From the NCBI RefSeq assembly GCF_963921235.1, contig NC_086097.1, positions 139,502,001 through 139,566,000 of the forward strand: 64,000 bases of DNA, in the 5' to 3' direction. Below, one piece after another: positions 2,769 to 63,420 of this stretch (its first letter is position 1; the number at the start of each line of letters is the position of its first letter). A model generated the notes under the pieces. The model worked only from the letters and a program-made list of their open reading frames with translations, was not told the DNA's origin and did no database searches. Source of the DNA: Mobula hypostoma (lineage: Eukaryota). The translations under genes were made by a program, and so were the position numbers.

Positions 2769-2873
2769 AAGCAACACATACAAAATGCTGGAGGAACTCA
2801 GCAGGTAAGGCAGCATCTATGGAAATGCATGAACAGTCGACATTTCAGGCCGAGATCCTTCTTGAGGACAGCT
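2769..2873 (-). mobile_element. Penelope-derived mini-element with degenerate hammerhead motif, 11-bp TSD
   Basis: Flanked by TTGTCTAGCTT (2758-2768) and TTGTCTATCTT (2874-2884); minus strand GTC-CTCAAGA-A-GGAT-CTCG-GCCT-GAAA-TG-TC-GACTG. Confidence 0.75.
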
Positions 2874-4009
2874 TTGTCTATCTTGCCTGTTTATTTCCTC
2901 AGAGTTCCAACAGATTCGTCAGGCAAGAAAACCGTGTTGACTTTTGGCCTGTTTTATCATGTTCCTCCAAGTACCCTGAAACCTCATCCTTAATAATGGA
3001 CTCCAACATCTTCCCATCCACTGAAGACAGGCTAACTAGTCTATAATTTTCCTTTCTTCTACCTCTTGAAGAGTGGGGCGACGTTTACAATTTTCCAGTC
3101 CTTCAGAACACTTGGAAGGTTATTACTAATGCCTCCACAATCCCTTCAGCTATCTCCTTCAGAACCCTGGGATGTAGTCCATCTGGTGCACCTTCATCTT
3201 TGGGATGCATCTATCCTGTACCTTCCGAAATACCCCCAGAAACTCACAGCCATTGCTGTTCTATCATCTTCCCTGCCAGTGTCCCCCTTCTCTTCTAAAG
3301 AGAATGCTTCTGTAATTCTCTTTACTCCATTATAATACTAAAACATCTGAGTTTATCTTCTCCCTCTCAAACTAGAGGGTGAATTCTATCATATTATAAT
3401 CACTGCTTCCTAGTGGTTTCTATACCTTAAGCTCTCTAATTAAATTTGGTTCACTACACAACACCCAATACAGATTTGCCTTTCCCCCAGAGTTGCTGCA
3501 CCACCAGTTGCTGAAAAAAAACATCTTGTGGGTGTTCTACAGATTCCGCCTTGGGATCCAGCGCCAACCTGATTTTTCGAATCTATCTGCATATTGAAAT
3601 TCCCCATGACTATTGCAATGTTTTCTATCTCTGTTGTAAATTATAGCCCATATCCTTGCTACTGTTCGAAGGCCTGTATACAACTTCCATCAGGGTCTGT
3701 TTACCTTTGCAGCTTCTTAACTCTACACACAAAGATTCTACGCCTTTTCACCTGTCACCTCTAAGAACTTGATTTCTTTTTTTAAACCAACAGAGCCACC
3801 CCACACCCTTTGCCTACCTGGCTGTCCTTTTGAAACAAAGGATATCCTTGGAGGTCAAGCTCCCAAATTTGATCTTCTTTCAGCCACAACATCATACCTG
3901 CCAATCTCTAATTGTACTACAACATCATACATCTTATTCCATATTCAGCATATATTTAAATATCAACATCTTCAGTCCTGTATTCATCACCCTTTTCGAT
4001 TTTGCCATA

Positions 4010-5115
4010 ATACCATAAGATGTAGGAACAGAATTAGGCCATTTAGCCCATCAAGTGTGCTCCACCATTTCATCATGGTTGTTCCAGTTTTCCTCTCAGC
4101 CCCCATCTCATCTCCCTTCAAACCCTGACTAATCAAGAATCTATCAACCTCTGCCTTAAATATACATAAAGTCTTGGCTTCAACAGCTGTCTGTGGCAAA
4201 GAATTCCACACATTCACCTCTCTCTGGCTAAAGAAATTCCTCATCTCCATTCTAAAAGTACGCCCCTCTATTCTGATATTGTATCCTCTGATCTTAGATT
4301 CTCCCCATTCACTCGATCAAGTCCTTTCACCATTCGATAGGTTTCAATGAGGTCATCCTTTTTCTTCTGAATTCTACTGAATGCAGGCCCAAAGCAATCA
4401 AATGCTTTTCATATGACAAGCCACTCAATCCTGCAATCATTTTTGTGAACCTCCTTTGAACCCTCTCCAGTTTCAGCACATCCTTTCTGAGATATGGGGC
4501 CAAAAACTGCTCACAATACTCCAAGTGAGGCCTCACCAGTGCTTTATAAAGTCTCAACATTACGTCCTTGTTTTTATATTCTAGTCCTCTTGACATGAAC
4601 GCTAACGTCACATTTACCATCCTCACCACAGACTTAACCAGCAAATTAACCTTTAGGGAGTCCTGCACAAGGATTCCACAGTCCCTTTGCACCTCAGTTT
4701 TTTGCATTTGCTCTCCATTTAGAAAATAGTCTACCCTTTCATTTCTTCTACCAAAGTGCATGACCATATACTTCCTGACACTGTATTCCATCTGCCATTT
4801 CTTTGCCCATTCTCCTAGTCTAAGTCCTTCTGTAGCCTCTCTATTTCCTCAAAGTTCCTGTCCCTCTACCTATCTTCATACCATCTGCAAACTTTGCAAC
4901 AAAGTCATCAATCCCATCATCCATGTGATTGACATTTCATGCAAAAAGAATCGGTCCCAACACAGACCTCTGTGAAACACCACTAGTCACGCAGCCAACG
5001 AGAAAAGATTCCCTTTATTCCCACTCTGCCTCCTGCCAATCAGCCACAACTTTCTCCATGCTAGAATCTTTCCCGTAATATCACAGGTTCAGAGCTTGTT
5101 GAGCAGCCTCGTGTG
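4010..5115 (-). mobile_element. CR1-clade LINE, 5'-truncated (RT C-terminus and 3' UTR)
   Basis: ORFs 4327..4791 (LYKALVRPHLEYC) and 3987..4250 (RNFFSQR..WNSLP). Confidence 0.9.
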
Positions 5116-6150
5116 TCACATTTCAACCCAGCTCACTGACTGTAATCATCTGCCTATCCTTCCTCATAGTCTTACTACACACATCATCTAGTTGTATACC
5201 AACTGCCCATTCCAGTTCCCACTCCCTGCCAAACTAGTGAAAATCCTCCCCAACAGTTCCAGCAAACCTGCCTACAAAGATATTGACCCCCCTTGTGTTT
5301 TTCTGTATAGATCTGTATAGACCTATTTTTCTGTATAGATCATACCTTCATAAGAGATCCAAATGATCCAGTAATCTGAAACCCTGCATCCTGCATCAAC
5401 TCCTCAGCCATACATTCGTCTGCCAAATCATCCTATTCTTACCCTCATTAACATGGTGTACAGGGAGCAATCCAGTGATTACTGCCCTGGAGGTGCTGCT
5501 TTTCAACTTTCTGCCTATATTCTCTCTTCAAGACCTTTCTCCATTTCCTACCTGTGTCACTGGTATCAACACATAGCATGATTCATAGCTGCTCTCCCTC
5601 CACCATCCTGAGAATGCTGTGGACCCAATCTGAGACATCCCTGACCCTGGCACCTGGGAGGCAATATACTATCTGGGTGTGTCTTTCATATCTACAGAAT
5701 CTCCAGCCTGCTCCCCTAACTATGGAATCTATGGAGGAGCCACAGGGGTACTGTGCTCGTATTTTTCTTTTTCTCTCTCTCTCACACACACATACACACA
5801 AACAGGCATCTGCCTCCTGTAACTCAGCGGTGACCACCTCCCAGTAGTTCCCTCTTATCCAGCACCTCCTCATCCTCCTATTTCAGCCAAGGTCATCGAT
5901 TTTCAGCTCCAGTCCCTTAATACAGTCTTCGAGGAATTGCAGCTTGGTGCACTTTGTGCAGATGTACTTATCAGGGAGACCAGAAGTTTCCCAAATTTCC
6001 CACATCTCACACAAGAAACATATCACTAAATCTGGACACATTCTCAGAGCACTAGGAAAAAAACTTACTTGGAGCCTGCGTCTATGCATGCCCAAGCTTG
6101 CTGAGCCAAAGCCTGACCACTCTAACACTGCTCCACTCCAACAATGGCTG
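5116..6150 (-). mobile_element. CR1 ORF1 remnant (Cys-rich zinc finger plus SGNH/GDSL esterase domain)
   Basis: ORF 5883..6128 (CFLCEMW...CTKC) and ORF 5583..5873 (DSIVRG...FC...VYCLPGARVRDV...IL...EGEQ), typical of CR1 ORF1. Confidence 0.8.
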
Positions 6151-14679: not shown

Positions 14680-17270
14680 ATGGAGTTAAGAAACTGCAAG
14701 GGTAAAAAAGCCATTATGGGAATCATGTATAGTCATAGTCATACTTTATTGATCCCGGGGGAAATTGGTTAGGTCTCCAAATAGTAGCCAAGATTTGGGG
14801 TTGAGATTGCAAAGGAAGCCGAGAAATCCATGTATTAAGGGTAATGCTACAATTGCAATGGGGTACTTCAAGTTGATGTAGGATCACAAGAGACAGAATT
14901 TTTTGAATGCCTACGAGGTGGCTCTTTAGACCAGCTTATGCTCGAGCATACCTGAGGAAAGGCTATCTCAGACAGGTTGTGTGTAATAACCCAGATCTTA
15001 TTAGGGAGTTTAATGTAAAGGAACCCTTAGGAGTCAGTGATCATAATATGACTGAATTCATACTGCAGTTTGAGAGAGAGAAGCATAAGTTACATGTATC
15101 AGTATCACAATGGAATAAAGGGAATTTCAGAGGCACAAGTGGATTGGAGGAGGATACTGGTGGGGATGACTTCAGAGCAGGGATGGCTGAAGTTTCTGGG
15201 AATGCTCACAAGGCACAGGATAGATAGATCCCACAGAAGTTGTTCTCAAATGGCAGAGGTAGGCAACCATGGCTGACAAGGGAATTTTAGGACTACATAA
15301 AAGCCAAGGAAAAGACATAAGGTAGCAAAAATGAGTGGGAAGTTGGATGATTGGGATGCTTTAAAATCCACCCAAACAGCAACTGAAAACGCTGTTAGAT
15401 GAAATATGAGGGCAAACAATCGAATAATATACAGCAGGATATGAAAAGTTTTTTCAGTTATATAAAGAGTAAAAGGGAGGCGAGAGTTGATATTGGACCA
15501 CTGGAAAATGATGCTGGTGAGATAGTAATGAGAGACAAAGAAATGGGAAATGAACAAAATGATACTTTGCATCAGTCTTCACTGTGGAAGACACTAGCAG
15601 TATGCCAGAGGTCTGTGAGTGTCAGGGAGCAGGAGTGAGTGCCATTGCCATTACAAAGGAAAAGGTGCTAGGCAAACTCAAAGGTCTTAAGGTGGATAAG
15701 TCACCTGAACCAGATGGACTACATCTCAGAGTCCTGAGAAAGGTTGCTGAAGAGATAACAGATGCATTGGTCTTAATCTTTCAAGAATCACCTGATTCTG
15801 GCATGGTCCTGGAGGACTGAAAGATTGGAAATGTCAATCCACTCTTTAAGAAGGGAGGAAGGCAAAAGAAAGGACATTATAGGCCAGTTGGTCTAACCTC
15901 AGTGGTTGGGAAAGTGCTGGAGTCTATTATTAAGGGTGAGGTTTCGAGGTATTTGGAGACCAATGATAAAACAAGTCCAAGTCAGCATGGTCTCTTTAAA
16001 GGGAAATTTTGCCTGACAAGTCTGTTAGAGTTCTTTGAGGAAATGACAAACAGGGTGGACAAAGGAGAGGCAGTGGATGTCATTTACCTTGATTTTCAGA
16101 AGGCATTTGATAAGGTGCCACACAAGACATTGCTTAACAAGACAAAATCCTACAGCATGACAGGAAATATACAGGCATGGATAGTGGAATGGCTGACAGA
16201 CAGGAGTCAGTGGGTGGCAATAAAGGGGAACTTTTCTGTTTGGCTGCTAGTGACTGGTGGGCTCCTGAGGTGTCAGTATTGGTACTGCGACTTTTCACAT
16301 TGTTTGTCAATGATTTGGATAATGGATTTGATGGCTTTGTGACAAAGTTTGCAGATGATACAAAAATAGACGGAGGGGTGGGTAGTGCTGAGGAAGCAAT
16401 GTGATTGCAGCAGGATATAGACAAATTGGAAGAATGGGCAAAAAAGTGGCGGATGGAATACAGTATTGGGAAATGTATGATGATGGGTTTTGGTAAAAGC
16501 AACAATAGTGCAAACTATTATCTAAATGTAGAGAAGGTTCAAACATCGGGGTGCAGAGAGACTTACGGAGTCCTCGTGCAAGACTCTCAGCAGGTTAATT
16601 TAAAGGTTGAGTGTAGTGAAGCAGGCAAATGCAATGTAGACATTAATTTCAAGAGGAATAGAATATAAAAGCAAGAGTATAATACTGAAGCTTTGTAAGA
16701 CATTGGTGAGGCCGCACTATTGGGCTCCATATCTCAGAAAGGATGTTTTGTCATTGGAGAGAGTCGAGATGAGGTTCATGAGTATGATTCCAGAAATGAA
16801 GGGGTTAACATATGAGAAGCGTTTGACAGCTTTGGGCCTCTACTCACAGGAATTTAGAAGAATGCAGGGGGAACTCACTGAAACCTACCGAATGTTGAAA
16901 GGACTAGATACAGTGGATGTGGAGAGGATGTTTCCTATGGTGGAGAGGATGCTTCCTGTGGTGGGGGTGTCCAGAACTTGAGGGCACAGCCTCAAAATTG
17001 AGGGACAACCTTTTAGAATGGAAGTAAGGAGGAAATGTTTTACCCAGAGAGTGGAGAATCTGTGGAATGCTCTACCACAAACTGCAGTGGAGGACAAGTC
17101 CATGGGTATATTTAAGGCAGAAGTTGATAGCTTCCTGATCAGTCAGATCATCAAAGGATATGGCAAGAAGGCAGGCGTATGGGGTTGAGTGGAATCCAGG
17201 TTCAGCCATGATGGAATGGCAGAGCAGACTCGATGGACTGAATGGCCTAATTCTGCTCCTATGTCTTAGA
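14680..17270 (+). mobile_element. CR1-clade LINE ORF2 (endonuclease end plus RT) and 3' UTR, frameshifted
   Basis: ORFs with EPLGVSDHN, YLDFQKAFDKVPH, KFADDTKI and VRPH; ends ...GGCCTAATTCTGCTCCTATGTCTTAG. Confidence 0.93.
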
Positions 17271-17795
17271 GTTAAAAAGCATAGTCCTTTTGGCCCAACT
17301 TGTCCAATTTAGCCCATATCCGCCTGTCTTTCCTATCCATTACCTGTATAAGCAAGTTTTACTGGGTTAATCCTGTGATGAAGGGGTTAATGTACAAAAA
17401 AAGAATGCGCAGGTTTGGTTGAAATTTTTGGATTTGAGAAAAATGAGGAGTAATTTTGTTTGGGTGGGTAGGGGGGTATTGGTTGAAATGTTGTTCCTCC
17501 TGGTGAGGCATCTAGAATAAAGCATAGTTTCAGAATAAGGTATTGTCCATTTCAGATGAGGAATCTCACAGGCAATCAAATCTTTGGAATTCACTTTGCA
17601 AACTGAGGAAGTCAATGGGTACGGGGAGTAACTGGGAGGGTGATGATGAGGTCAAGATTAGATTGGCTGCAATCTCATAAAATAGCAGGGAAATTGAGGG
17701 GCTGACTGGCCTAATCCTGTTGATCATAATCTGGTGAGATTTCAGACATTTGCAACAAATGAGGAAAACTAAAAACAAACTGCCCTAATTTTAAA

Positions 17796-18018
17796 AGCAA
17801 CACACATCAAAGTTGCTGGTGAACGCAGCTGGCCAGGCAGCATCTCTAGGAAGAGCTACAGTGTCGTTTCCAGCCGAGACCCTTCGTCAGGACTGATAAA
17901 GGGTCTCAGCCCGAAACGTGACTGTAGCTCTTCCGAGAGATGCTGCCTGGCCTGCTGCGTTCACCAGCAACTTTGATGTGTGTTGCTTGCATTTCCAGCA
18001 TCTGCAGAATTCATGTTA
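17796..18018. mobile_element. Palindromic (inverted-dimer) Penelope-derived mini-element with a hammerhead-like motif on each strand, about 10-bp TSD
   Basis: Arms about 17795-17890 and 17893-17988 are reverse complements; TAATTTTAAA at 17786-17795 and 18019-18028. Confidence 0.85.
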
Positions 18019-18528
18019 TAATTTTAAAGCAATTGAGATCAGCCAAAAAAAAAATTGAACGATTTAGACACGAACTGGGTGTTTCATTGCTAGAACTCTA
18101 GGGAAAACCAAATGAACAGAAACCATCTTTTCAAATTATACACACTTATGATCCAACAAAAATACAAGTGATGCATGGATTATGGTTTTGTCATCATCTA
18201 CGCAGGTTAAAGAAAGGAGAAATACTGAGATGCACTTGAAGGAGAGTTAATTTCTGTCACTGTAAATGTAGCACTTGCTTCACCGGTGGGTTACAACTAA
18301 TCTCTAAATCTTTACACAGAATTGTTTATTACTACAGCCATCAAAAATCCAAATCCAAATGTATATCCAAAATTTGTGCACTTTTAACATTATCTTTTTG
18401 GAGAAAAGCACAAGGAAATTTTAGTGCCACATTAGAATCCTTTTTAAGTAATAGTTTTGCATGAGAATATTGTATCAGCAGGTTCCAGGTGCCAATAAGT
18501 ACTGATAACTATTATACTTGAATCTCAC

Positions 18529-20174: not shown

Positions 20175-21915
20175 TTATTTATTTCTGAGGTGCAGAACGG
20201 AATCAGTCCTTCCAATCCTTGCAGCCACACCACCGAGCAACCCACAGATTTAACCTTACCTTAATCATGGAACAATTTACTATGACCGATTAACCATAAG
20301 ACCGTAAGACAAAGGAGCAGAAGTAGGCCATTCAGCCCATCGAGTCTGCTCCCCCATTTTATCATGAGCTGATCCATTCTCCTATTTAGTCCCACTCCCC
20401 CGCCTTCTCACCATAACCTTTGATGCCCTGGCTACTCAGATACCTATCAATCTCTGCCTTAAATACACCTAATGACCTGGCCTCCACTGCTGCCCGTGGC
20501 AACAAATTCCACAGATTCACCACTCTCTGACTAAAAAAATTTCTTCACATTTCTGTTCTGAAAGGGCGCCCTTCAATCCTTAAGTCATGTCCTCTTGTAC
20601 TAGACTCCCCCGTCATGGGCAACAACTTTGCCACATCCACTCTGTCCATGCCTTTTAACATTCGAAATGTTTCTATGAGGTCTCCCCTCATTCTTCTAAA
20701 CTCCAAGGAATACAGTCCAAGAGCAGACAAACGTTCCTCATATGTTAACCCTCTCATTCCCAGAATCATTCTAGTAAATCTTCTCTGTACCCTCTCCAAC
20801 GTCAGCACATCCTTTCTTAAATAAGGAGACCAAAACTGCCCACAGTACTCCAAGTGAGGTCTCACCAGCACCTTACAGAGCCTCAACATCACATCCCTGC
20901 TCCTGTACTCTATTCCTCTAGAAATGAATGCCAACATTGCATTCGCCTTCTTCACTACTGACTCAACCTGGAGGTTAACTTTAAGGGTATCCTGTACGAG
21001 GACTCCCAAGTCCTGTTGCATCTCAGAACTTTGAATTCTTTCCCCATTTAAATAATAGTCTGCCCATTCATTTTTTCTGCCAAAGTGCATAACCATACAC
21101 TTTCCAACATTGTACTTCATTTGCCACTTCTCTGCCCATTCTTCCAATCTATCCAAGTCTCTCTGCAGACTCTCCGTTTCCTCAGCACTACCGGCCCCTC
21201 CACCTATCTTTGTATCGTCAGCAAACTTAGCCACAAAGCCATCTATTCCATAATCCAATCGTTGATGTACAATGTAAAAAGAAGCGGCCCCAACACTGAT
21301 CCCTGTGGAACACCACTGATAACCGGCAGCCAACCAGAATAGGATCCCTTTATTCCCACTCTCTGTTTCGTGCCAGATCAGCCAACACTCTATCCACGTA
21401 TGTAACTTTTCCGTAATTCCATGGGCTCTTATCTTGTTAAGTAGCCTCGTGTGGCACCTTGTCAAAGGCCTTCTGAAAACCCAAATATACAACATCCACT
21501 GCATCTCCCTTGTCTAGCCTACTGGTAATTTTCTCAAAAAATTGTAATAGGTTTGTCAGGCAGGATTTTCCTTTAAGGAATCCATGCTGAGTTCTGCCTA
21601 TCTTGTCATATGCCTCCAGGTACTCTGTAACCTCATCCTAACAATCGACTCCAACAACTTCCCAACCACCGACGTCAAGCTAACAGGTCTATAATTTCCT
21701 TTTTGCTTCCTTGCCCCCTTCTTAAATAGTGGAGTGACATTTGCAATCTTCCAACCTACCAACTGGCCACATCTTCGGGCTATGGGAAGAAACTGGACCA
21801 TCTGGAGGAAACCCATGCAAACACAGAGAGGAACTTGCTCACAGGATCTCAGAATTAAACTCCAACTAACTGAGCTCTATTAGCATCGCACTAACTGCTA
21901 TGGTGGCACACCAAT
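20175..21915 (-). mobile_element. V-SINE (HE1-like) split by a young CR1 LINE at about 20295-21755
   Basis: ORF 20545..21504 enters the RT frame at about LDYGIDGFVAKFADDTKI and stays open for over 200 codons; SINE halves lie at about 20175-20297 and 21755-21915. Confidence 0.9.
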
Positions 21916-23285: not shown

Positions 23286-24796
23286 CATTGGGAGGTCATT
23301 GGATATATTACCAGCAAATGAGGACAGGGACTTGGGTCAATCTTTCTCCCTAAGGTTTATACACCTGCATTCCTTCTCATGGATGAGATCAATGATCATC
23401 AATATACAAGGATAAACTTGCTTTAGAACAGATTCAGAATTCAATTGGGCACGTTTACTTAACAACATTAATCAAGAACAATGCATATCAGCATCTAGCA
23501 ATAAGTGGAAGAGTTTAACCCACAGACTCACAAACTATCTTTAAAACAGATTTATACCACAATCAACTATATTTCAAAATTTATATCCACCATGCTTTTA
23601 GATGCCTTATGAAAGTGAATGATTACATGTTTGGATAAAGGATCATATGCGAAAATCAAGTGTGATCATTCCAGCTTTCCAGCAGACTTAAGATTCCCAG
23701 CTCATGATTACTAACAGCAGTCTGATCACTTCTCCATCTACCATTAGTCCTTTCAGTTAGCCACTGCTAACAGCAGGAAGCAGTAGCCATCAGCCGCTCA
23801 CTGACACACAATTTCACCACAACCTACAAATAAAATACAATCTTCCAATCTCATTTCTCCACTGCGGTAGCTGTTTCTTCACTAAAGCCAAGGCATTCAT
23901 TTGCCTGACAGAACATTTCAAAGACTGTTAGTAATGCCTGGAAATAATGTTCTTTTCGCCACTACATTCAACTTTTATGTGCAGAGGGACTTTTATGTGA
24001 ATGAAGATTCTTTACATTAAGCCAAAAAGATATGGGTTCTTTCCCAGCCTTCCATCTTAGCAGAATAACAGAATGCAATAACCATGAAACTAGACAACTT
24101 ATATAATGATAAATTAAAGATACAAATTTAAATTCAAGTCGTTGCATCTGAGCAAACATTTAGTTATATGAAAAGGAAACTGACAGGTCAGAATTTCCGC
24201 TATTGTAAGATAAAGTCACAAGCAAGCTTCTTCCAGAGTGTGCCTTCAAACTGAGCACAAGGCTAACCTATGTGTCATATACGCCCCCAATTATTTAACA
24301 CACACACACACTTTGGTATCAATATGGAGCTTTATCAATTGAAATGGCTTCTTTCATTTCCTGTTGCAGTTAGTTTAGTTCATTTGCTGCACTTCATGCA
24401 AATTAATAAACTAAATTAACATTACCAAATTATTTGCAAGTAGTTCCATCGAAACATCAGATATAATGTATTTCTTCACCTCCAGAAATCCACTAGTAAC
24501 ACAAAACACCAAGCAGGTATATTAGACCTGCAATGTTTTAGCAGAATGAAAATAGGCCCAATTAAAGTATTAGAGATTTCTATTAAGATGGGAACTGTTA
24601 GAAAATTTGATTTGAACATCACTACACTTTTGATAGCTGTACCCTTGGATCACTACACTGTAAAACTACCCGAAAAAGAAATTTTTCAAACTGAAGCATC
24701 AAGAATAAAAGAGCAGCATGGAGAAATGGTTCCAGTAAGTCATCAAACTGGATATTGATACCCAGAATTATAGCCAACAGAACACTTAGAACATCA

Positions 24797-25345
24797 ACAC
24801 AAGAGATTCAGCAGATGCTGGAAATCCAGCGCAACAAAATGCAGGAGGAACTCAGCAGGTCATCGGGACTAGCAAAGAAGGGAAGATACCAGAATAAAAA
24901 GATGGGGGAGAGGAAGGAGGACAAGCTAGAAGATGATAGATGAAACCAGGTGGGTGAGAAAGGTAAAGGGCTGAAGAAGAAGAAGGAATATGATAGAGGA
25001 GAGTGGACTATGGGAGAAAAGGAAAAAAGAGCACAGGGGAAGGTGATGGCAGGTGAGAGAAGGGGTAAGAGGCCAGAGTGGGGAACAGAAGAAAGCAAAG
25101 GGGAAAGAGGAAAAGAAAGAAAATTACCAGAGGAGAAATCAGTGCCCATGCCATCAGGTTGCAGGCTACCTAGACAGAATACGAGATGTCGTCCTCCACC
25201 CCGAGAATGGTCTCATCGAGGCAGAAGAGGTGGTTTCGGACTGACAGGTCACAACAGAAATTAAAATGGTTGGCCACTAGGAAATTCTGCTTTATGCAGA
25301 TGGAGCAGAGGTCCTCAACAGAGCGGTCTCCCAATTTATGTCAGG
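24797..25345 (-). mobile_element. Penelope-like element 3' fragment; hammerhead core mostly deleted
   Basis: Reverse complement resembles 48800-49460 (GIY-YIG end, pyrimidine-rich tract, terminal tail). Confidence 0.7.
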
Positions 25346-25717
25346 TAATTTACGTTTACAACATCAGTGATATGAGCCTTGCTATCTCCCTTCATCTCAT
25401 TTTGAGAACACCTTTCAATCACTTTCTCCTTTCACATCTGTCTAATTTTCCTTATTTAAGCCATTCATGCCAACAACTTGTCAAGTTCCACATTTGAGCA
25501 TACTTTTGGTCCAAATTATGCATCTGAGCCTTATCTGATGTTTTTCCATCAAGCAGAACATGGAGCTGATTACATTTTAAAACAGCTCATAATAGAATAA
25601 TTACACTGATACCCCCATTTAGCCCTGCCAAGGTTCATTATAGTACAGCTCATCCTTCAATCCTAACACTCACAGATATATAATCTGTCCTGTAAAAAGG
25701 AATCTCCACTGTTATAA

Positions 25718-25835
25718 ACACAAGAAATAATGCAGATGTTGGAAATCCAAAACAACACACAATTCTGGAGGAACTCCGGCAGCATCTATGGAAATGAATT
25801 AACAGTTGACATTTCGGCCAACACCCTTCACTGTC
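25718..25835 (-). mobile_element. Degenerate Penelope-derived tail with hammerhead remnant
   Basis: Plus strand ...AACAGTTGACATTTCGGCCAACACCCTTCA, homologous to 39331-39459. Confidence 0.6.
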
Positions 25836-26074
25836 GTGCCAGAAACTTACACAATCTATTACCAGCCACAACTGTTGTATGGTGCTGTGCTGGTATTCAG
25901 GGCTTACACAGCAATCAATCACTCTGTAGCTTGCTGTGGAAAGGTTGTCATTTGATGGCTGACAGTTCTGCCTCATCTGTGGAAGAGTAGGCAGATCTTA
26001 GCACTAGCAGTCACTTCAGAACCTGCAAGCTATAGTGAAAATAAGTCATTCTGACTCCAAGGGACTGCCATATT

Positions 26075-28914: not shown

Positions 28915-29011
28915 CTTCTGCAACTCCCCATGGATACTGTCGGCCCCTGACACGTTTTCCATTCACCTCTATAATAGTATTACTACCTACAACAGCAAGA
29001 GGTAAACGATC
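28915..29011 (-). CDS. SEPTIN7: SEPTIN7 coding exon (97 nt): [32 protein letters not shown](V), start of the septin unique element
   Basis: Minus strand CAG|GATCGT...GCAGAAG|GTAAG; lies within ORF 28874..29062. Confidence 0.97.
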
Positions 29012-39330: not shown

Positions 39331-39459
39331 ACAACAGGAATTCTGCAGATGCTGGAAATTCAAGCAACACACATCAAAGTTGCTGGTGAACGCAGCAGGC
39401 CAGGCAGCATCTGTAGGAAGAGATGCAGTCGACATTTCAGGCCGAGACCCTTTGTCAGG
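39331..39459 (-). mobile_element. Penelope-derived mini-element (129 bp) with hammerhead motif, perfect 10-bp TSD
   Basis: ACAGATGCAT at 39321-39330 and 39460-39469; minus strand GTC-CTGACAA-A-GGGT-CTCG-GCCT-GAAA-TG-TC-GACTG. Confidence 0.85.
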
Positions 39460-40191
39460 ACAGATGCATCTCTACTTATAATAAGGGATTTAATAGGAAA
39501 AGGTGTTGTGCATTATGGAAAACTGTGATATTGACTGTTTTCCAGCAACTCAATCTTTCTATAATGTGTGGTTCCCTATACATCCATTTTCTTCTAATTT
39601 TTTCTGGCAAAATTAACCAAAATATTATTTCTTTAAAGCGTTTCTCAGAGATTCTTGTGTGACCTTCAGTTTGTTTGCCTGTTCTACTTTTCACCCTGTA
39701 AACTTTGGAAATTAGGATTTTGGATCACAATCTTAAACTACGATGGCCTTGTTCATCCAAACCCATACAGTTTCTTCCCTCAAATTTCTGGCTCAGTTTT
39801 GTAATTATTACAAACTGAACAACCATCTGGTGTATGTTTTCAGCAGCCTTGACCTTGAGCTCTGAAATTCCAAGCTCCCCAAACCTCTCTTTCTCTATCG
39901 CTCTTTCCTTCTTAAAGATGCACCTTCTAATATCTCACTTCACATTTAGTGAAATTTAAACTAGCACTCACTGTCCAACAATGCAAAAGAGTTAATAGTA
40001 ATGCCAGAATTGATGAGTGTTGTAACTACAGAGGTTCTTCAGTGTTATACGAGTGCTCATGAGAAGTCTTACTCAAGAAATGGAATTGACAGATACAGGA
40101 ATTATGATCAAGGTAATCTGAGATCTTCTTTGTAGTCAGTGGTAGGGAGCTACTTTCTGTTCTATTTCATTGAAAATATTATCTTCAACTT

Positions 40192-40253: not shown

Positions 40254-40562
40254 CAAGCATGCACATATATGTGGGGCCTTGACTTCAAGGTACTGATAAG
40301 GATTTGACGTTGAGCATCATTTCATACAAACTTTGGGTTTATGAATGCACTCTGTTCATGCTGGTCATAAGCAGTTGCCAGGAACACGAATACCCCTACA
40401 GAAGTACTTTATTATTTGTGAAATATTCCATATAAATATAAAACCATGTAAAAACTTGGAAACAGTCAGTCAAGAAGTCTTGCATTTGAAAAAAAAATGT
40501 TTTGCTATATTTTCACAGATGCTGCTTGAACTGCTTGCTTCCAGCATTTTCAGTACCTATAG

Positions 40563-40565
<3 letters not shown>

Positions 40566-40614
<49 letters not shown>

Positions 40615-40681
40615 ATATATACACACACACACACACATACATACACACACACACATATATAAATAAATAAAATAAAATAAA
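40566..40681. repeat. Compound microsatellite (TG)n-(TA)n-(CA)n-(A3-4T)n
   Basis: Directly visible; ends about 20 nt from the exon donor at 40702. Confidence 0.95.
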
Positions 40682-40702
40682 CGTACAATTTGGAAAACTT
40701 AC

Positions 40703-40803
40703 CAGTTGCTGTTGTCCACAGCATCTCCAAATCCAGGAGTATCGACTATTGTGAGTAGTAGTTGAACACCACCTTCTTTAATGAATACTTTTGACTGTTC
40801 CAC
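40703..40803 (-). CDS. SEPTIN7: SEPTIN7 coding exon (101 nt): [33 protein letters not shown](C), contains G3 motif DTPG
   Basis: Minus strand reads CAG|GTGGAACAG...AACTG|GTAAG; translation matches SEPT7. Confidence 0.97.
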
Positions 40804-42819
40804 CTGTTTAAAAATAAAACAGAAAAATGTAAAATTCTACAAAACACTTCAATTGCTCAAAGGGATCCTGGTTAAGTCACTGATGTCTGCTTAAATAAAT
40901 TTAGGATTGCATTCATTCCTAATACAGAATAATTAGAATTTTTATGAAAACTAGCTCAAGATATCCAAATTTAACTATGTCATAATTTGAAGACATTGAT
41001 GAGAAACTCATATTCTTTCAATGTGCTCAGGTATCTCATGGAAACCCAATTAGCCTCAAATGCAACAAAAATTTTGAAGATTTAATCCCAATGAATATCT
41101 TCCTTACTCAACAATCAAGCTGATCATATAGGACACAAGATCAGAATAAGGTCTGCAGGTAGTGATCCACAGTAGAAAATGTTTAATCACAACCTTCGCT
41201 GAAATTTGCCACCCTGTAATTCAAAAGTAGATCATTCTCACTTTCCCCTCTTCTCCTTACATATTATCCAGTGTTCTGCTTCTACAAACAACAGGCCTCT
41301 CTGGGACAAATCTCCTTCATGTCCTTAGAAGAACCACTATCCAAGACAATGGAAATTACACTGGGTTTAAATTGAATATCTAGATATAATAGTAATCAGA
41401 GAGAAAACTGAAGGTTGTTTAACTATCTAGTAAAACAACAATTTCAGACGCTTTTTCTGAAATACAACACATGCTCAAAAGTGCTCAAAGCTGAATTTGA
41501 CTCCTTTAGGCTAAAGACATTGTCATGAGAAATTCCACTTGGGACTAAGATGAGTAGCTTCTAACAAATACAAACATCTTTCTTTGACTGACTCCAGCCG
41601 ATGGAGTGGGTTCCTTGACACCCAACCACCCCCACTCTTCCGAATTGGCTCTAAATGGATCATCCTGGGCTACTGGCTGCGAGGTTCCCAAATTTCTTTT
41701 AGTGTGTTGTTTGGCAAGGCAATAATGCAATAGCTCATTGGGTCTACTTAAAATATTTATTCTCATAAATATGAGAATACTCAGGCAGCTTTCCATTTTG
41801 TCAGATACATGGCACTGTTGTAGCTGCACTACAGCTTAACTTGGCAGTAGAGTACCAGTCTACTTGTGACTGGCTAAAAGCTGCCAGAATCTTTGCTGGG
41901 TCAGCGCACTGGCCATTTCCTGAATAAAATAAGTTAGCTGGGGAGTGGTATAAGTGATGATGAAAAGTTCAAGACAGCAAGTCATGAAACTCCACTTGAC
42001 ATCTTTGTCTGAAGATGGTTGTGAATATTTGATATGGTGGTAGCACAGCAGCTGAATTACAGAATTAACTGTATTGTCATAAAAGCCTATTGGGTTCACT
42101 CATGTCCTTTAGAGAATAAAATCTGCTCTTCTTACTCTGACTTTGAACAGACTCCAGCTGGCCTCACACACCTGATATAGTTCAGTAAACCAGATGAACA
42201 ACAGCAAATTGGAATGGGCAACAAACACACCTTGTTAGCAACATCCAGATTCCCAAGAAATGAATAAACATGCTACTGACATCAGTTTGCAATTGATGCA
42301 TTTTCTTTCTTTCATAAACATTCAAGATACAGACAATGGAGAATCGTGGTGAGTTTTCCTTTTGTGGAGACAGCCAAGTAAGTGATTTGAGAAAACAGAA
42401 CTTGGGATCCTCTCAGTCAGTGATTACAAAACTCATGTGCAAAGGGATAATAAATTTTAGATGTTATTATTCCAAATATGTATATTGAATGGCTTAAATG
42501 ACAATTATAGAAGCAGCTGATGGATACAAGTCAGAGTTCAAATACATAAAGACAACATGCCGCATGTGTTTGCAACTTAGGTAAACAGTGATCTTTTAGA
42601 CCTTAAAACTCGATGTTTCATTCCAGGCTGTAAACCTGGTTCAGACAATCAAATAACCCTAGTTCATTCAGGGAAATTCTTTGCTAATAGTAGGTCTGCC
42701 TACTCAGTTCCTTTAAGTGTTGTTGAGAACATAGGTAAACAAGTTTTTGGTCACTAGAAGCTACAGAATTCTTTCACCCTGTGTTGATACACTCCACTCA
42801 ACACAGACTAGGATGTATT

Positions 42820-43642: not shown

Positions 43643-44073
43643 TGAGGGGTGATTGATAAGTTTGTGGCCTACGGTAGGAGTCAATTTTAGAAAACCTAGC
43701 ATATTTATTTTTCAATTTAGTCCCCTCCTACATTTACACACTTAATCCAGCGGTCGTGGAGCATACGGATCTTGGACCTCCAGAAAGTGTCTATAGCAGG
43801 GGTGATTGATAAGTTCGTGGCCTAAGGTAGAAGGAGATGAGTTATACAGCTCTCGTTATATACACATGCAGTTCAACTCTTTAAGTGATTATGCAGAAAG
43901 TTTGAGGTTAATAACCCACCTCCTTCTACCTTAGGCCACAAACTTATCAATCACCCCTGATGAGTTATTAACTTCCAACTTTCTGCATAATCACTCAAAG
44001 AGTTGAACTGCATGTGCATGTAACAGAAGCTGCATAACTCATCTCCTTAGGCCACAAATTTATCAATCACCCC
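43643..44073. mobile_element. Mariner-type MITE, rearranged, with four copies of the TIR
   Basis: GGGGTGATTGATAAGTT-GTGGCCTA at about 43646 and 43799; its reverse complement at about 43932-43958 and 44048-44073. Confidence 0.7.
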
Positions 44074-47000
44074 AAGTCAAGTCAGTCAATATCTGACTTG
44101 TAATGAACTGTGTTCCTGAATTAAAACAGGCAGAATAAAACCAGGATTCAACTCCAATGCACTTGTACACTACGCCTGACATCCTCAGATCCTCCATTTC
44201 AAAACTTTGATCTTAAAGATGAGACTTTGTGTGAGCACCATCTTCATAAAGCTGCAACTACTCAACAAACAGGGCCATGTTTTTGCAATTGATAGAGAGC
44301 TCATTACCGAGCCATCATCCAAAATTATTAGTGCAGGTATATGGTCATTGCGTTATTCTGAGAGAAAAGTCCAAAGCAAAAATTGTAGAAGTAATGAAAA
44401 TTTAACTAGCAAATTCTGTTCTTTAAAAGTTGCAGCAGAACTTTTCATATGAAGACTAAATGAAATTCCTGGTAGAGTTTTGTTGCAATTTCAACTTTCT
44501 TTTTAAAAAAAAAGATAGACAAATTGTGATCTTCTGTAGTTGTTTCAACTGCTTAAGACTCTGCAACTGAAATTTCCATCCTTCCCTCAATTTAGATGAG
44601 CCTTCCTGTTACCACAGCTGGAACTAATAAAGAGTTGAAATACAAATAACGCTTGCCAATCCTCTCACACAATGTGTGACTTACCATAAGGATAAAGATA
44701 TAACCAGTAGAGCAAGGCACTAAGAAGCAATGTGACTTGTATTGCAAAACCAAACAGTCGATACATCATTTACATGGAGATCTAGAAAACACAGCCATTC
44801 AAAGCAAGACCTCCAAATCCAACTGAGCTTAGTTGTCACATCAAACTGATGATAAAATCAATCTGAAGCAGGAACAGAATCAGGAACAAAAATGCTTCAA
44901 AGTTGCAAAAATATAGTTGTTAAATAGCAGTTTGTCCCAGAAACTATATAGCTTTCATACTCTGGCAACCAGAAATATGCCACTTAATAAAAGAGGAACC
45001 ACACTTTGAAATGTTTTTTTATAAACTGTCATTTAACCAACGGATTTCAAATAGCAACTCAAAATGCTAGAGGAATTCATCAGATCAGACAGCATCAATG
45101 AAGGGAAAAGGACACTTGACTTTTCAGATTGAAACCATTCACCACGACTGTAGAGAGAGGGGGCAGGTCAGTATATTAAGGGGTTAGAGCAAGAGCTGGC
45201 AGAACTCGACTTTCCTATTTGTCACTTTAGCTACAGTTATTGTATCTAATTACCCTCATCAGGGAGAGAGATGATACAGCTTGCTACCCATTATCTGATA
45301 TGAAAGAATGAATGTAATTCCATACCTACATAATTTTACCGTAGTGATGAAAGAGCAAGGAACATGGCACAACATGGCCAGCTGAAAGCAACAGTGCTGA
45401 GCAACGAGTGAATCATGGAACTTCCATAATTTTCATTTCTTGTGTATTTTTTTTAACATCCTGAAGTTGCTTATTCAGGAGGAACAAAATATACAGCATT
45501 GAAACAATAGCACATATTCAACAATTTTACCAGTAATCTTGTTTTCACAGATTATTGACAAGCAAATTTCCATAAATATAGTTACTGACCAAAACCAATC
45601 ACATAATTAAAAAAATTAAGTGTGGACCATATAACATACACCCTCTTCCACATAATATTCAGTGGTTACATAATTTGGACGAACTCCCTTTCAGAATCAA
45701 CAGACTAGACAACTAACCTTAAAATGGTCTTAACTGCTGCTTCAAACAAGAAATAATCAAAATGCTAACCTGTCAGAAAATTAGGATTATAACAGATTGG
45801 TCATTTTGGTTGAATTCTGGCTCTAACTGTTGGATTCATAGAGAAAGATGAAAGCTGCAAATGAGTGTGTGTAATCTACAAATAAATCTTCGGTACCGTA
45901 ATCAATGGCTGCATTCAGCAGCACACAACAGGGAAGTCTCCAAATCAAGAGCTCAAAGATTTGCATCACAGATTCCATGATTCCACATTCCTTTATTTAC
46001 TGAATTCAAAGGTTGGTTCTACACAGAGCTGATTATATTTCACCCTCCTCACACCAGGATGAACAATTACCTAAATCTATAAAGTATACTCAACATATGA
46101 TTCAATTCATGGCTCTTGATTTGATATTTCCCTATCCTTCCTACCCAGTCTTCAACAACACATTGCTCTACTGATGTAATCCCCAGACTGGCTGTTTGAT
46201 TCATAACATAAATCAGAAAACATTTTCCACAGCATTGCAGTTTGATTTAAAGTTAAAAGTGCCCAAAGGGAAGGACTTCTACAAATTTCTCACTCCTTCC
46301 CATTGGTCAATTTATAAACGATTATCTTCTAACATTGCTTGAGTTAGACTCAACCCCTCCCCTCCCCCATCAATTTTCACAGAGGAAATTAGAGAAAGCC
46401 TACATTTATCAAGAAAGGTTTCTAAACCTCACATGCATTAGGGCCACCATACATGGGAAAAGTACAAAATGGAAAAAAAAACAACTGGAAACAATCCAGA
46501 GAATGTTCGTATAAACAACAGATTCACATAACAATCTCTGACCATATTCCATCATCTGGTTTTCACATCATTCCCATGAGAATTCTGGAAACCAGAATCC
46601 AATTCTTGGCATTCCAAGCTTACACTTCAAATCACAGCATTCCCCACTATCATTTTACTTTATTAAACTGACAAATTTATATCCCTTCAGAATGCTTCCA
46701 CTGAAAAAACATACGTACATATTTGAGATATTTTTAGCTAGTCAATGATAATCAAAGAAAATAGTTAGTTTAGGTCAAAGATGTTAATGGCTTAGGCTGT
46801 GGGAAATAAGATCCCTTTTTAAAAGAAAAATAGTTGACATTCATGTCACTGAACCAAGGACTGCAAACAAAGTACTATCTTAGTGTTTCCAGATGCCATT
46901 ATGTGCAACTCTGCATTTGCATCATGTTAAACCCAGTTGTTCAGACAATATATTGAAGGCAAAATCATGTCACTTTCTCTACAAGGGTTAATGAAAGGAC

Positions 47001-47439: not shown

Positions 47440-49460
47440 CCCACCGCCCCCCAGTTCAGTCCCTTCCTATCTTCACACTTCACACACCGTGGATCTTTTA
47501 AATGATTTCAAGTTCCCTGGCCCCTATCATCTTATCTTCACTATGGATGTCCAGCCCCCACCAGGAAGGCCTCAAAGCTCTGTTTCTTTCTGGACATCAG
47601 ACCCAACCAGTTCCCTCCATCACCACTCTCCTCCGTTTAGCTGAACTTGTCCTCACTCTTAATAATTTCTCCTTTGGCTCCTCCCACTTCCTTCAAACAA
47701 AAGATGTAGTCATGAACCACATCAAAGTTGCTGGTGAACACAGCAGGCCAGGCAGCATCTCCAGGAAGAGGTATAGTTGACGTTTCAGGCCGAGGGTCTT
47801 GGCCCAAAACGTCGACTGTACCTCTTCCTAGAGATGCTGCCTGGTCTGCTGCATTCACCAGCAACTTTGATGTGTGTTGCTTGAATTTCCAGCATCTGCA
47901 GAATTCCTCATGTTTATGTAGTCATGAACACTTGCATTGGTCCCAGCTATGCCTACGTTTTTGTCGGCAACATGAAACAGTCGATGTTCCAAGTCCCAAT
48001 TTTCCTACGCTACATCGATGACTACATTGGTGCTGCTTCCTACACCCATGTGGAGCTCGTCGACTTCATCCATTTTACCCCCAACTTCCACCCTGGTCCA
48101 TTAAGTTTACCTGGTCCATTTCCGACACCTCCCTCCCCTTTCTCAATCTGTCTCTATCTCTGGAGACAACTCATCTAATGATGTCTATTATAAACCTACG
48201 ACTCTCACAGCTACTTAGACTATACCTCTACCCACCCTGTTACTTGTAAAGGCACCATCCCCTTCTCTCAATTCCTCCGTCTCCACTGCACCTGCTCTCA
48301 GGGTGAGGCTTTGCATTCCAGAATGAAAGAGATATCCTCCTTTTTCAAAGAAAGGGACTTTCCTTCCTCCACCAATGCTGCCCTCAACCTCAATTTGTCT
48401 ATTTCACACACGTCTGCTCTCACCCCATCCTCCTGCCGCCCTACCAGGGATAGGGCTCCTCTTGTCCTCACCTACCAGTCTCCACATCCAGCACATAATT
48501 CTCCAGAACTTCCACCATCTCCAACAGGACCCCACCACCAAGCACATCATTCCATCCCCTCCCACTTTCTGTTTTCCGCAGGGATCGCTCCCTACGCGAC
48601 TCCCTTGTCCATTCATCTGCCCCCTCTGATATCCCTCCTGGCACTTATCTTTGCAAGCAAAATAAGTGCTACACCTGCCCCTACACCTCCTCCCTCACTA
48701 CCATTCAGGGCCCCAAACAGTTCTTCCAGGTGAGACGACACTTCACCTGAGAATCTGTTGAGGTTATATACTGTGTCCGGTGCTCCCAGTGTCGCCTCAT
48801 GTATATCGGTGAGACCTGCTGTAGATTGTGAGACAGCTTCACCGAGCACCTACGATCCTTCCACTATAAAAAGCGGGATCTCCCAGTGACCACCCATTTT
48901 AATTCCACTTCCTATTCCCATTCCAATATGTCAATCCATGGCCTCCTCTACCGTCACGACGAGGGCACATTCAGTTTGGAAGAACATGTTATATTCTGTC
49001 TGGGTAGCCTCCAATCTGATGGCACAAACATTGATTTCTCAAACTTTGGGTAATGCACCCACCTTCACCAATCCCCACCCCCTTTTCCCTCTTTCACTTT
49101 ATCTCCTTGCCTGCCCATCACCTCCCTCAGGTGCTCCACCCTCTTTTCTTTCTTCATGGCCTTCTATCCTCTCCTACTAGATGCCCCCTTCTCCAGTCCT
49201 GTATCTCTTTCACCAATCAACTTCCCAGCTCTTCATTTCACCTCTCCTCCTCCCAGTTTCACCTATCACCTTGTGTTTCTCTCTCCCCTACCCCCACCTT
49301 CTGAATCTACTCCCTATCTGTTTTTCTCGTCCTGCTGAAAGGTCTTGGCCTGAAACATCGATTGTACTCTTTTCTGCAGATACAGCCTGGTCTGCTGAGT
49401 TCCTCCAGCATTTTATGTGAGTTGCTTGGATTTCCAGCATCTGCAGATTTTCTCTTGTTA
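47440..49460 (+). mobile_element. Penelope-like element (Neptune-type), 5'-truncated and decayed: RT, Cys linker, GIY-YIG endonuclease and terminal repeat with hammerhead motif
   Basis: LIFTMDV, LVLTLNNFSF, GPSYA, FLRYIDD (YIDD 48011-48022), CKQNKCYTC linker, VIY (48763-48771) and YIGET (48802-48816); hammerhead-like motif at about 49329-49364. Confidence 0.9.
47718..47915. mobile_element. Palindromic Penelope-derived mini-element inserted into the Penelope RT, perfect 14-bp TSD
   Basis: ATGTAGTCATGAAC at 47704-47717 and 47916-47929; arms about 47718-47793 and 47799-47873 are inverted. Confidence 0.9.
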
Positions 49461-49544
49461 GTATTCTACATGGACAATGAAGCAACCATGGTTGAAAATG
49501 GAAATCAAAGACAGCATAAAAACAACAGAGCATACAACATAGGC

Positions 49545-50745
49545 ATGATAGACAAAGGAAAGTCAGCGGATGATGCTTACTTGGATTTTCAGAAGGCCTC
49601 TGACAAGGATTTGCACATGAGGCTGCGAAACAAAATAAAAGCCCACAGTATTACAGGAAAATAGTAACATCGACAGAAGATTGGCTGACAGTCAGGAGAC
49701 AAAGATGGAAATACAGAGGGCCTATTCTGGCTGCTTCCAGTGACTAGTGGTGTCTCACAGTTGTCAGTATTGTGACCACTTCTTTTCATGTTCTATGCCA
49801 ATGATTTGGATGATGAAACTGATGGCTTTGTGGCCAAGTTTGCAAAAAACACACAGAAAGGTAGCAGGGCAGGCAGTGTTGAGGAAGCAGGGAGTCTTCA
49901 GAAGAACTTAGATAGACTGGGAGAATGGGCAGAGTGGCAGATGGAATACAGTTGAGGAGAGTGTATGGTCATGTACTTTGGTACAAGAATAAAGGCATAG
50001 ACAATTTTCTAAATGGGGAGAAAATTCAGAAACCAGAGCTGCAAAGGTACTTGGGAGTCCTTGTGCAGGATTGCTGAAAGATTAACTTGTGCGTTAATTC
50101 GGTGGTACGGAAGGCAAATGCAAATGTTGGCATTCATTTCAAGAGGACTCGAATGCAAAAGCAAGTAACGTTAAGGCTTTAAAAGGCATTTGTCAGACTG
50201 CAATTGGAGTATTGTGAGCAGATTTGAACCTCTCCTCTGAAAAAGAATGTGGTGGCATTGGAGAAGGTCCAGAGGAGACTCACGAGAATGATCCTGGGAA
50301 TAAAAGGGTTAACATATGAGAAGCATTTGATGGCTCTGGACCGGCACTTGCTAGAGTTCAGAAAAATGAGGGGGAAACTCATTGAAACTTATCAAACATT
50401 GAAAGGCCTAAATAGAGTGGACATGGAGAGGACGTTTCCTATATTGTGGGAGTCTAGGACCAAAGGACACAGCCTCAAGAATAGAAGGGCATTCCTTCAG
50501 AATTCAGATGAGGAGAAATTTACTTGGCTAGAGGGTGGTGAATATGATTGCTACAGACAGTTGTGGAGGCCAAGTCATCGGGTATATTTAAAGCAGAGCT
50601 TCTTGATTAGTAAGAGTGTCAAAAGTTACAGGGTGAAAGCAGAAAGATTGGATTGAGAGGGACAATAAGTCAGTCAGCATGGAATGGCACAAGTTTGATA
50701 GGCCAAATGGCCTGATTATGCTCCTTTGTCTTTTGGCCTTCTGGC
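49545..50745 (+). mobile_element. CR1 LINE, 5'-truncated, decayed
   Basis: YLDFQKA, LEKVQRRLTRMI and CR1 3' tail. Confidence 0.88.
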
Positions 50746-58179: not shown

Positions 58180-59405
58180 TCCAGTAAGTACACAAATTTT
58201 CTTTAAGTGTGGCATCCAAAAATGTGAAGAATGAAGCAATACTCAAGTGGGGGCCTCCCACTCCAGGACAAGTGACATCTTATATGTCCTCCTTTTCAGG
58301 AAAGTGTCCCCCTCCTCATCACCCACCTGCTATGGTTGATTGGGTCCTTGCACTCACCATATTCATTTCCCATACCCTTTGCTCTCATCCTGCCTTCCCA
58401 CAGACAGAAAAAGGATAGAGACCCCTTACTTTTCACCCCATCAGCCTATGCACCCAGTATCTCATTCTTTGACACTTCCGCCTACCACAACATTATCCCA
58501 CCACCAATCATATTTTCCCCCTTACCACCCATTTCTGTTTTCTGCAGGAACTTTTCACTCCATGACTCCCTGGTTTGCTCATTTTCCCCACCCATTTCAC
58601 CAACTCACACCCCCTCCCTACTCCTGCCTCCACTCGCGGCACTTGTCCCTCCAACTGTAGATGTAACATCTGCCCCTACACCATCTCACTGACCTCCACC
58701 CAGGCACCTAAACAGCCCTTCAAGTGAGGCAGAGATCTGCATACATCTCCTCCAACTTTGTCTATTGCATTTGGTAATCTCTGCACTGGTGAGACCAAGC
58801 AGAGACAAGGAGACTTCTTTGCTGAGTATATGCACTTTGTCCATCACAGCTCCTTGTTGCAAGTCATTTTAACGTCCTTCCCCCAATCCCACATTGATTT
58901 TCCTGACCTCTGCTACCTCCATTGCCAGGTTGAGGCCAAATACAAACTAGAAGAACACCATATTGTATACCATGTGGGCCATCTACAATCTGATGGCTAG
59001 AACTCTGACTTCTCCAAACTTGTCTAAACTTGCTCCTTTATTCCTTTCACTCCCTTTCTGACCCAGCCAGTCCCTCTCACACAGTCTTTCCAGGCCATCC
59101 AGTGACTCCTCTCCCCAATTCCCAGTTTCTTTTCCCTCCCCACACACTCTTTTTGCCCACACCCTCACACTCTTCCTACTATATCCTCTCCCAACACTGT
59201 TCCTACCTTCCCACCATATGTGCCAAATTTGGTTTCTTTTCCTCATCAAATTCTTGCCCCACTCATCCCCCTCAACTCTTTCTCATGGCCATCTTTCCGG
59301 TATTTATCAGTCCAGATCAAAAGTCTTGAACCAAAAAATTAACTATTTCCCTCTATGTTGGTTGACCTATTGAGTTCCGCCAGCAGTTTGGTTTTGAATC
59401 AGAGG
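58180..59405 (+). mobile_element. Old Penelope-like element 3' half (GIY-YIG remnant, pyrimidine tract, degenerate hammerhead/tail)
   Basis: Colinear with 48300-49460 (for example GETKQRQGDFFAEY and EEHHIVYHVGHLQSDG in ORF 58758..59000). Confidence 0.7.
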
Positions 59406-62400: not shown

Positions 62401-63237
62401 AAATTTCACAACTCAAATCATCAGTTGCCACAACCCATGTGGAAATTAAAAGGAAGGATACCAAATATGATAAACTTCAAAAAAAAACTGCAGATGCAGA
62501 AAATCTAATGAAAGATAGTGGGGCTGAAAAACTAGTTCCTTCTCTCTCTATACACTGCCCGATCTGCTGATCATACTAATGGTGTATTCCTTCTGAAATA
62601 GAATTTTCAAAAGCTTTGTGAACCACAGCCATCAATTTGCAAGTCATATTTTTCTGTATTTATCCGGGATAAAAGTTATCCTAGTTATCAGATCATTGAA
62701 TGGTCCCTGGAATAATAAGATGGTCTCTTGAAGTTCTGGCCTGTAATTTCTGTGTAACACTTCACTTTGCATTCAGTTATTATTTTCTCCTGTACCTCTA
62801 TGCATTGTGTTGAAATGATCTGTTATGGATGGCATACAAAATAAAGTTTTTCACATCTTTGTACATGTGAGAATAATAGACCAATTTACCAGTTATTGAG
62901 GTAGATAAATCTCACTCCTTGGAGGATTATTTTATTATATATTATACAAATGCAGTCTTAATCTGTCTCAAATCACATCATTCAGACTCGATTTCTGAAA
63001 CCCACCAAATGTAAAATTTCAAACAAAACATACAACTTCATAAAATTCTAAGTCAGTGGAGAAGAAATGAGAAATTAACTCAAAGATACAACTGCTATGA
63101 GGAATAATGGAAAATGTTACCAATTGTAATAGCACTCAAAACATTTTTCACGGGGAAAATACAAAACTATACAAAAGTGAATGTGGAGAACAGATTAAAA
63201 TAAAGTAGCTTTTTAAAAAGCTGAGAGAACTAAAGCC

Positions 63238-63420
63238 CAGGCAGCATCTATGGAGGGAAATGAACAGTTAATGTTTCGGACTGAAAACCATCATCTGAAG
63301 GGTCTTAGGTTGAAATGTCAACTGTTCATTTTCTTCCATAGATGCTGCCTCACCTACTGAGTTACTACAGAAATTTGTGTAGTTGCTCAAGTTTTCCAGC
63401 ATCTAAAGAATCTTGTGTTC
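63238..63420. mobile_element. Third palindromic Penelope-derived mini-element (older subfamily)
   Basis: AGGCAGCATCTATGGAGGGAAATGAACAGTT... is inverted against ...AACTGTTCATTTTCTTCCATAGATGCTGCCT, followed by the family tail. Confidence 0.75.

Follow-up and report, generated by a model that had tools for sequence, protein, structure and literature searches.

The repeated segments in the introns of a septin gene of Mobula hypostoma are very probably decayed, mostly 5'-truncated insertions of a Penelope-like element whose terminal repeat (pLTR) carries a known minimal type I hammerhead, and which persist as dead passengers. Their location in SEPTIN7 is incidental, and the repeats are no feature of that gene. 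Genome-wide, the ends of such insertions indicate that the RNA from which they were copied was likely mostly uncut. The kind of motif was already known (the minimal hammerhead of 2014, extra A included), and the copies described here are ordinary.

The window, that is the whole stretch of 64,000 nucleotides that was analysed (contig NC_086097.1, 139,502,001 to 139,566,000), had been described preliminarily as holding six homologous segments (minus strand 2834-2871, 17859-17895 and 39426-39463; plus strand 17893-17924, 47794-47818 and 49329-49364), and all six were recovered at these places and on these strands. A profile built from them returned 15 window matches at E<1e-3, seeds included and with the fainter copies suggested at 25.8, 45.1, 59.3 and 63.3 kb among them, and shuffling the window left no match at this threshold in ten out of ten shuffles (best E 0.089). 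Septin exons were located on the minus strand at 1029-1124, 28916-29014, 34510-34683, 38675-38821 and 40705-40806, with one further exon outside the window and two stretches of the Pfam septin domain (about positions 172-198 and 230-244) without an assigned exon. As the exon at 38.7 kb matched Septin-7 best among solved structures (E 2e-26, versus 1e-13 for Septin-2) and septin exons span the window, the motif copies are intronic, in agreement with the placement in SEPTIN7 first proposed. The copies and the host exon are as follows.

2769-2871, minus strand: older mini-copy with hammerhead motif (2834-2871, G5>C) and tail, 77% to a full-length copy
17796-18018, both strands: young insertion in which two pLTR ends fold back head to head, flanked by a 10-bp target duplication (17786-17795 and 18019-18028)
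17859-17895, minus strand: motif with U16.1>A and a 1-nt deletion near the cut site
17888-17924, plus strand: motif with G8>A and C17 missing, an inversion junction replacing the 5' strand of stem I
24795-25333, minus strand: older truncated copy, endonuclease-end remnant and tail, hammerhead mostly deleted
25717-25842, minus strand: older mini-copy, 5' core lost
27822-27939, minus strand: very decayed copy
38675-38821, minus strand: SEPTIN7 coding exon (host gene)
39331-39463, minus strand: young lone mini-insertion, 97% to a full-length copy, with its start near -31 and G8>A in its motif (39426-39463); 10-bp target duplication (39321-39330 and 39460-39469)
45053-45151, minus strand: decayed copy (C3>G, A6>G)
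47447-49459, plus strand: older 2-kb 5'-truncated Penelope-like copy, about 75% identity, with the RT end, endonuclease, 3' UTR, motif 49327-49364 (A6>C) and tail
47718-47915, both strands: young fold-back mini-element inside the preceding copy, both arms beginning within stem II, without CUGANGA
58435-59392, plus strand: very old remnant, ORF end and decayed motif 59308-59345
63234-63412, both strands: older fold-back pair, cores broken in both arms

The catalytic core was broken or partly missing in 14 out of 14 aligned window copies and none passed a hammerhead descriptor, which bears out the initial remark that no single copy fits the consensus. The segment at 47794-47818 is homologous, as claimed, but is no hammerhead core, since it lacks CUGANGA and starts at an inversion junction. 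Among 23 Rfam matches in the window (E<=5), none belonged to a hammerhead family; those to microRNAs were rejected as microsatellites or the 17.8-kb fold-back. Pfam searches of seven window frames found RT of other retroelements only, and the two Penelope remnants gave nothing. With the core broken or incomplete in every aligned copy, cutting of septin pre-mRNA is unlikely, and the intronic copies are likely catalytically dead passengers.

Other sequences were observed alongside. The introns are full of decayed LINE fragments with RT sequence, which belong to at least two kinds (1257-5122, 15818-17162, 20334-21753, 26425-27359, 36065-36550 and 49544-50656). An 88-nt inverted repeat with 89% complementarity and a 42-nt spacer (43805-44048) and a TG/CA microsatellite hairpin adjoining a septin exon (40557-40690) each produced a spurious Rfam microRNA match. 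Elsewhere in the genome (C12:28.6-30.4 Mb, C13:21-160 kb and C21:185.7 Mb), clusters of intronless frames, 1,170-1,270 codons long, match a septin-like GTPase weakly and would, judged by their sequence, constitute an expanded family of large GTPases.

The repeat that holds the motif is 100-140 nt long, with the motif as its 5' third; the source of the window motifs is the 3' end (pLTR plus tail) of a Penelope-like element, which in full runs pLTR, ORF (RT, then GIY-YIG), pLTR. Searching the genome with an RT piece yielded 33,400 candidates, of which 150 were scored and the 20 with the longest frames taken, these 20 representing one query and one subfamily. Nine out of the 20 had a direct upstream motif, and in full-length copies the two direct motifs lay 3,462-3,728 nt apart, with pLTRs 93-98% identical in all six cases measured. 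One such copy, L153, comprises a pLTR, a 1,043-codon frame and a second pLTR, and its motifs are separated by 3,512 nt. Open frames of 1,043 and 1,058 codons matched RVT_1 (E 2e-5 and 2e-6) and, C-terminal to the RT, GIY-YIG (E 0.002 and 0.01), all of these scores lying below the Pfam curated cut-offs. From its ATG, located 138 nt behind the predicted cut site, the ORF extends over about 1,016 amino acids. GIY-YIG-ending frames also precede the motif in many of the first 30 loci matching a 26-nt core of the motif, at a stop-to-motif distance of about 410 nt; the motif is thus, as had been surmised, a Penelope-like element's minimal type I hammerhead, and is present in both pLTRs. A 28-nt tail piece has 56,171 exact matches in the genome. 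Family insertions show 5' truncation, an inverted 5' partner, an optional 30-40-nt tail and target duplications, and relatives of the element are present in other organisms (four contig sets).

By its sequence, the element likely belongs to the Neptune clade. The translated ORF contains a DKG motif and a C-X4-C-X2-C linker between RT and endonuclease, and the available text of Craig et al. (2021; PMC8557442) assigns a CX2-5CxxC linker to Neptune and Nematis, but not to Penelope/Poseidon. With Neptune as described there, the element shares this linker, the CCHH-type endonuclease and the DKG motif, as well as 5' truncation, inverted partners, a tail and partial tandems; microsatellite targeting, in contrast, was not evident in the flanks viewed here. 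The choice of Neptune over Nematis is tentative and comes from the linker motif.

The family as a whole, rather than the window, reveals the complete hammerhead. In the consensus of 191 young copies, the majority state comprises the core, stems I and II, the extra A and the palindromic ACGU; the core, with CUGANGA, GAAA and UH in order, shows 94-99% per-base conservation outside CpG sites. A hammerhead descriptor recovered 107 sites from 0.99 Mb of DNA enriched for the family, each of them readable with the extra base, versus 0-1 sites across ten shuffles. The 3.48-Gb genome holds 11,802 exact matches to a 26-nt core with C11.1 and 50,234 to the same core with U11.1, together 62,036; reversed controls gave none. 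The consensus originally drawn from the window therefore stood in its core and in stems I and II, but not at position 11.1, where it had C and the genome majority is U.

These properties closely follow the minimal hammerheads of metazoan pLTRs described by Cervera and De la Pena (2014; PMC4209133), whose hallmarks, in the available part of that paper, are an extra base between 9 and 10.1, a palindrome and a G10.1-C11.1 pair. Type I topology, the CUGANGA/GAAA core, the extra base after A9, the palindromic 15.2-16.2, the missing helix III, a helix I of 4-5 bp and the occurrence mostly as dispersed singles with some close inverted pairs are common to both. Here, helix II has 4 bp and the majority pair is G10.1·U11.1 instead of the conserved G-C. 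The preliminary description had invoked an extra A tolerated in a viroid hammerhead; this precedent is unneeded, as the extra base is itself listed as a hallmark. Regarding numbers, the same text gives about 4,000 motifs in coelacanth and 9,000 in Xenopus, counted by descriptor, compared with at least 62,000 exact cores here. The available part of that paper names no cartilaginous fish, and among the papers listed in literature searches there was no dedicated report on this group; the supplements of PMC4209133 or Repbase/Dfam may list the family.

Non-LTR retrozymes (Li et al. 2026; 10.64898/2026.07.22.740005) likewise carry a type I hammerhead related to those of pLTRs and, in the available text, are reported in the one chondrichthyan sampled. 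They form tandem arrays, whereas the copies here are dispersed singles or head-to-head pairs; head-to-tail tandem units, the retrozyme trait, were not found among the window copies. As a separate observation, C2:12242907-12243219 holds three motif matches on one strand at about 145-nt spacing, a short, retrozyme-like head-to-tail array.

The youngest and commonest subfamily has G10.1·U11.1, and older subfamilies have G10.1-C11.1. Of the 191 young copies, 117 have T and 71 have C at position 11.1, but the partner G has become A in only 7; this strand asymmetry, together with the linkage to the +5 base, rules out CpG decay and indicates that U11.1 is inherited. Tail divergence amounts to 1.3% in U11.1 copies (n=112) and 3.3% in C11.1 copies (n=72), the latter set including loci chosen for an exact core. 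All 20 long-ORF loci, from one query and one subfamily, have U11.1 in their 3' repeat. Since the G10.1-C11.1 pair is conserved, the G·U pair would be expected to slow cleavage.

What was copied can be read from the insertion ends, whose positions we counted from the first base after the predicted cut (0). The 3' ends of 220 hits form two clusters, about +65 and +101 behind the cut site. For lone 5' ends, taken from 220 young copies after dropping targeted ones, 13 out of 39 in the range -99 to +15 fell within -33 to -30 (p 4e-10) and one within -3 to +2. Genome-wide start patterns, which required three foreign bases before the start, gave 159 apparent starts at -37, 2,550 at -32, 2,320 at -31, 1,019 at -30 and 239 at the cut site. 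These filters pass unequal shares, estimated at roughly 0.25, 0.39, 0.34, 0.39 and 0.18, respectively; after a rough correction, the -32/-31 peak exceeds -37 about tenfold and the cut site about twofold. Around 10% of the -32 starts are an older subfamily's own UTR.

The first 30 starts at each of three positions were inspected. Those at -31 included 18 lone copies, of which 12 had a target duplication; those at -32 comprised 8 lone copies, 2 of which had such a duplication, 18 inverted and 4 other; at the cut site, none was lone, 27 were inversion junctions, many of them joined through the GACT repeat of stem I, and 3 were internal. Target duplications of 10-15 bp or an inverted partner often accompany the -32/-31 starts. 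Perfect fold-backs centred on the cut number 60 in the genome. An accumulation of 5' ends at the cut site, which would have been fossil evidence proving cleavage, was searched for in the junction counts and not found, and cleavage may make a minor contribution to the starts there. Seven of the nine ORF-bearing loci with an upstream motif extend upstream beyond -32; the 5' repeat of the full-length copy L156 begins at -32, possibly also that of L169, and none of the ORF-bearing loci begins at the cut. The 5' ends thus pile up at the outer edge of the hammerhead and not at the cut, which argues that the copied RNAs were likely uncut; in the same line, the 3' clusters imply that reverse transcription runs across the cut site, and copies made from cut RNA would begin at 0. 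Independently of these counts, two copies on C1 (about 170,480 and 2,960,850) begin at +8, each preceded by the same foreign stretch of 45 nt, which suggests a chimeric repeat family with the tail and without the hammerhead.

We propose that the element protein would nick DNA and start reverse transcription inside the RNA at either of the two tail sites; reverse transcription would then have to read through the uncut hammerhead and would often end at the outer edge of the motif (stem I, -32/-31). Cleavage after GUC by the motif of the parent element would be no more than slow, whether through a dimer or aided by protein, and copying can likely proceed without it. The closest precedent is PAc, an Anolis Poseidon element, for which the available text of Frangieh et al. 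(2024; PMC11167929) names uncut RNA as the main substrate and reports cleavage only with protein, with no sign of cut RNA being copied. PAc also combines an RT with a C-terminal GIY-YIG, has its hammerhead upstream of the RT start and uses two internal RT start sites with a 30-40-nt tail, matching the two 3' clusters here. It differs in that its ORF starts in stem II, compared with an ATG 138 nt behind the cut site in our element, and, being of the Poseidon group, in the CX4CxxC linker, which Penelope/Poseidon elements lack (PMC8557442, in its available part). The latter paper, to the same extent, calls the function of the hammerhead in endonuclease-bearing Penelope elements unclear.

The 2014 model, in which an efficient dimeric ribozyme cuts tandem transcripts into unit-length RNAs that are then copied, appears unlikely for this family. 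Its appeal lies in a consensus with a complete core and palindromic ACGU, a full-length transcript that carries two motifs, a nested double-hammerhead fold that is possible at -16.7 kcal/mol (C11.1 form) and, at the cut site, a weak surplus of inversion junctions. However, the preferred computed fold is an inactive rod that pairs the core with the cut triplet, favoured over the monomer hammerhead by 4 kcal/mol and over the double one by 17-19 (tertiary contacts ignored), and, in the available text of PMC4209133, the activity of minimal hammerheads is low even in dimers. Lone insertions account for none of the 30 cut-site starts and no ORF-bearing locus begins there; moreover, as reverse transcription starts behind the cut, cut RNA would yield copies of only 65-101 nt. 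The youngest subfamily, finally, has abandoned the G10.1-C11.1 pair. A covariation test at pair 10.2-11.2 found a compensating U in 3 of the first 100 listed A10.2 copies (1,475 in total), a test of low power because one lineage dominates; a compensated stem II subfamily, hinted at by one copy, was accordingly not supported, and the retrieved DNA held no usable divergent Penelope family with a different stem. The active dimeric ancestor initially envisaged thus finds no backing in the fold, the covariation, the few cut-site starts or the youngest subfamily. Dimeric cleavage has reportedly been described by Lunse et al. (RNA Biol). Roughly 10 of the same 100 A10.2 copies (L233, L238, L243 and others) were seen to share another loop together with an A·C mismatch in stem II that lacks compensation; they may be a small subfamily of their own whose ribozyme is damaged.

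Within the reading of an uncut template, the -32 edge is about equally well taken as the 5' end of the RNA or as a structural stop. An RNA start fits the sharp edge, the initiator-like sequence and L156, but in its simple form does not predict the seven of nine long loci that extend past -32. A structural stop fits these loci and the edge of the rod, and is weakened because the hairpin of the copied DNA is weak (-3.4 kcal/mol) and is not the stem I fold.

If the RNA starts at -32, cutting would shed a 32-nt capped leader and silence or divert the RNA, so that the hammerhead would act as a cap-removing brake, weakened by U11.1 in the subfamily that spread fastest; we regard this as doubtful. 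The initiator consensus is YYANWYY. The -32 sequence fits it with A at -32, in young and older subfamilies, and the peak of 5' ends at -32/-31, the ATG at +138, the lower tail divergence and fourfold abundance of U11.1 copies and the presence of U11.1 throughout the long-ORF loci all agree with such a brake. Yet a 7-base initiator match is weak, the starts examined gave no clear signal of a cap-derived extra G, the 20 long-ORF loci are one query and one subfamily, and the success of a subfamily need not stem from base 11.1. Furthermore, the Penelope element of D. virilis starts well upstream of its hammerhead, 46 nt before an intron whose end maps to helix I (PMC4209133, in the available text). 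It is accordingly a tentative idea that the hammerhead forms the extreme 5' end of the RNA and acts as a self-decapping brake rather than as a processing step, and that the youngest burst of more than 50,000 exact copies arose from a U11.1-weakened ribozyme.

It is quite improbable that the short copies form an independent non-autonomous family, SINE-like or retrozyme-like, or spliced chimeras made through a tract resembling a 3' splice site. Thousands of 100-135-nt copies have target duplications and a common 5' end, and stem I is preceded by a pyrimidine tract with CAG and TAG at its end; the short copies, however, are identical in sequence to the pLTR subfamilies of ORF-bearing elements, belong to a truncation continuum and are dispersed without tandem arrays, and chimeras are opposed by target duplications that abut the motif, which also rule out host exon capture via this tract, and by the lack of a common leader exon. 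The tract itself was seen before every young motif (for example, L010 1450-1500); in L153, oriented 2900-2970, it consists of a branch-point-like sequence, a pyrimidine tract and a CAG/TAG end at the 5' strand of stem I. Neither a nearby donor nor a spliced retrocopy was seen in the loci examined. The arrangement resembles the D. virilis Penelope intron that ends in helix I (PMC4209133, available text). Regulation of SEPTIN7 pre-mRNA by self-cleavage of the intronic copies is barely credible, as the septin sense orientation of 9 of the 15 window matches is set against cores that are broken or missing in every aligned copy and a window density no different from that of the genome-wide family.

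Taken together, the more than 60,000 intact cores constitute a fossil record of copied RNAs, which points to uncut RNA with a fixed hammerhead edge. The older C11.1 and younger U11.1 forms provide a natural variant pair for a cleavage assay and, if the brake reading is true, the role of the Penelope hammerhead in vivo would be directly testable with these two natural variants.
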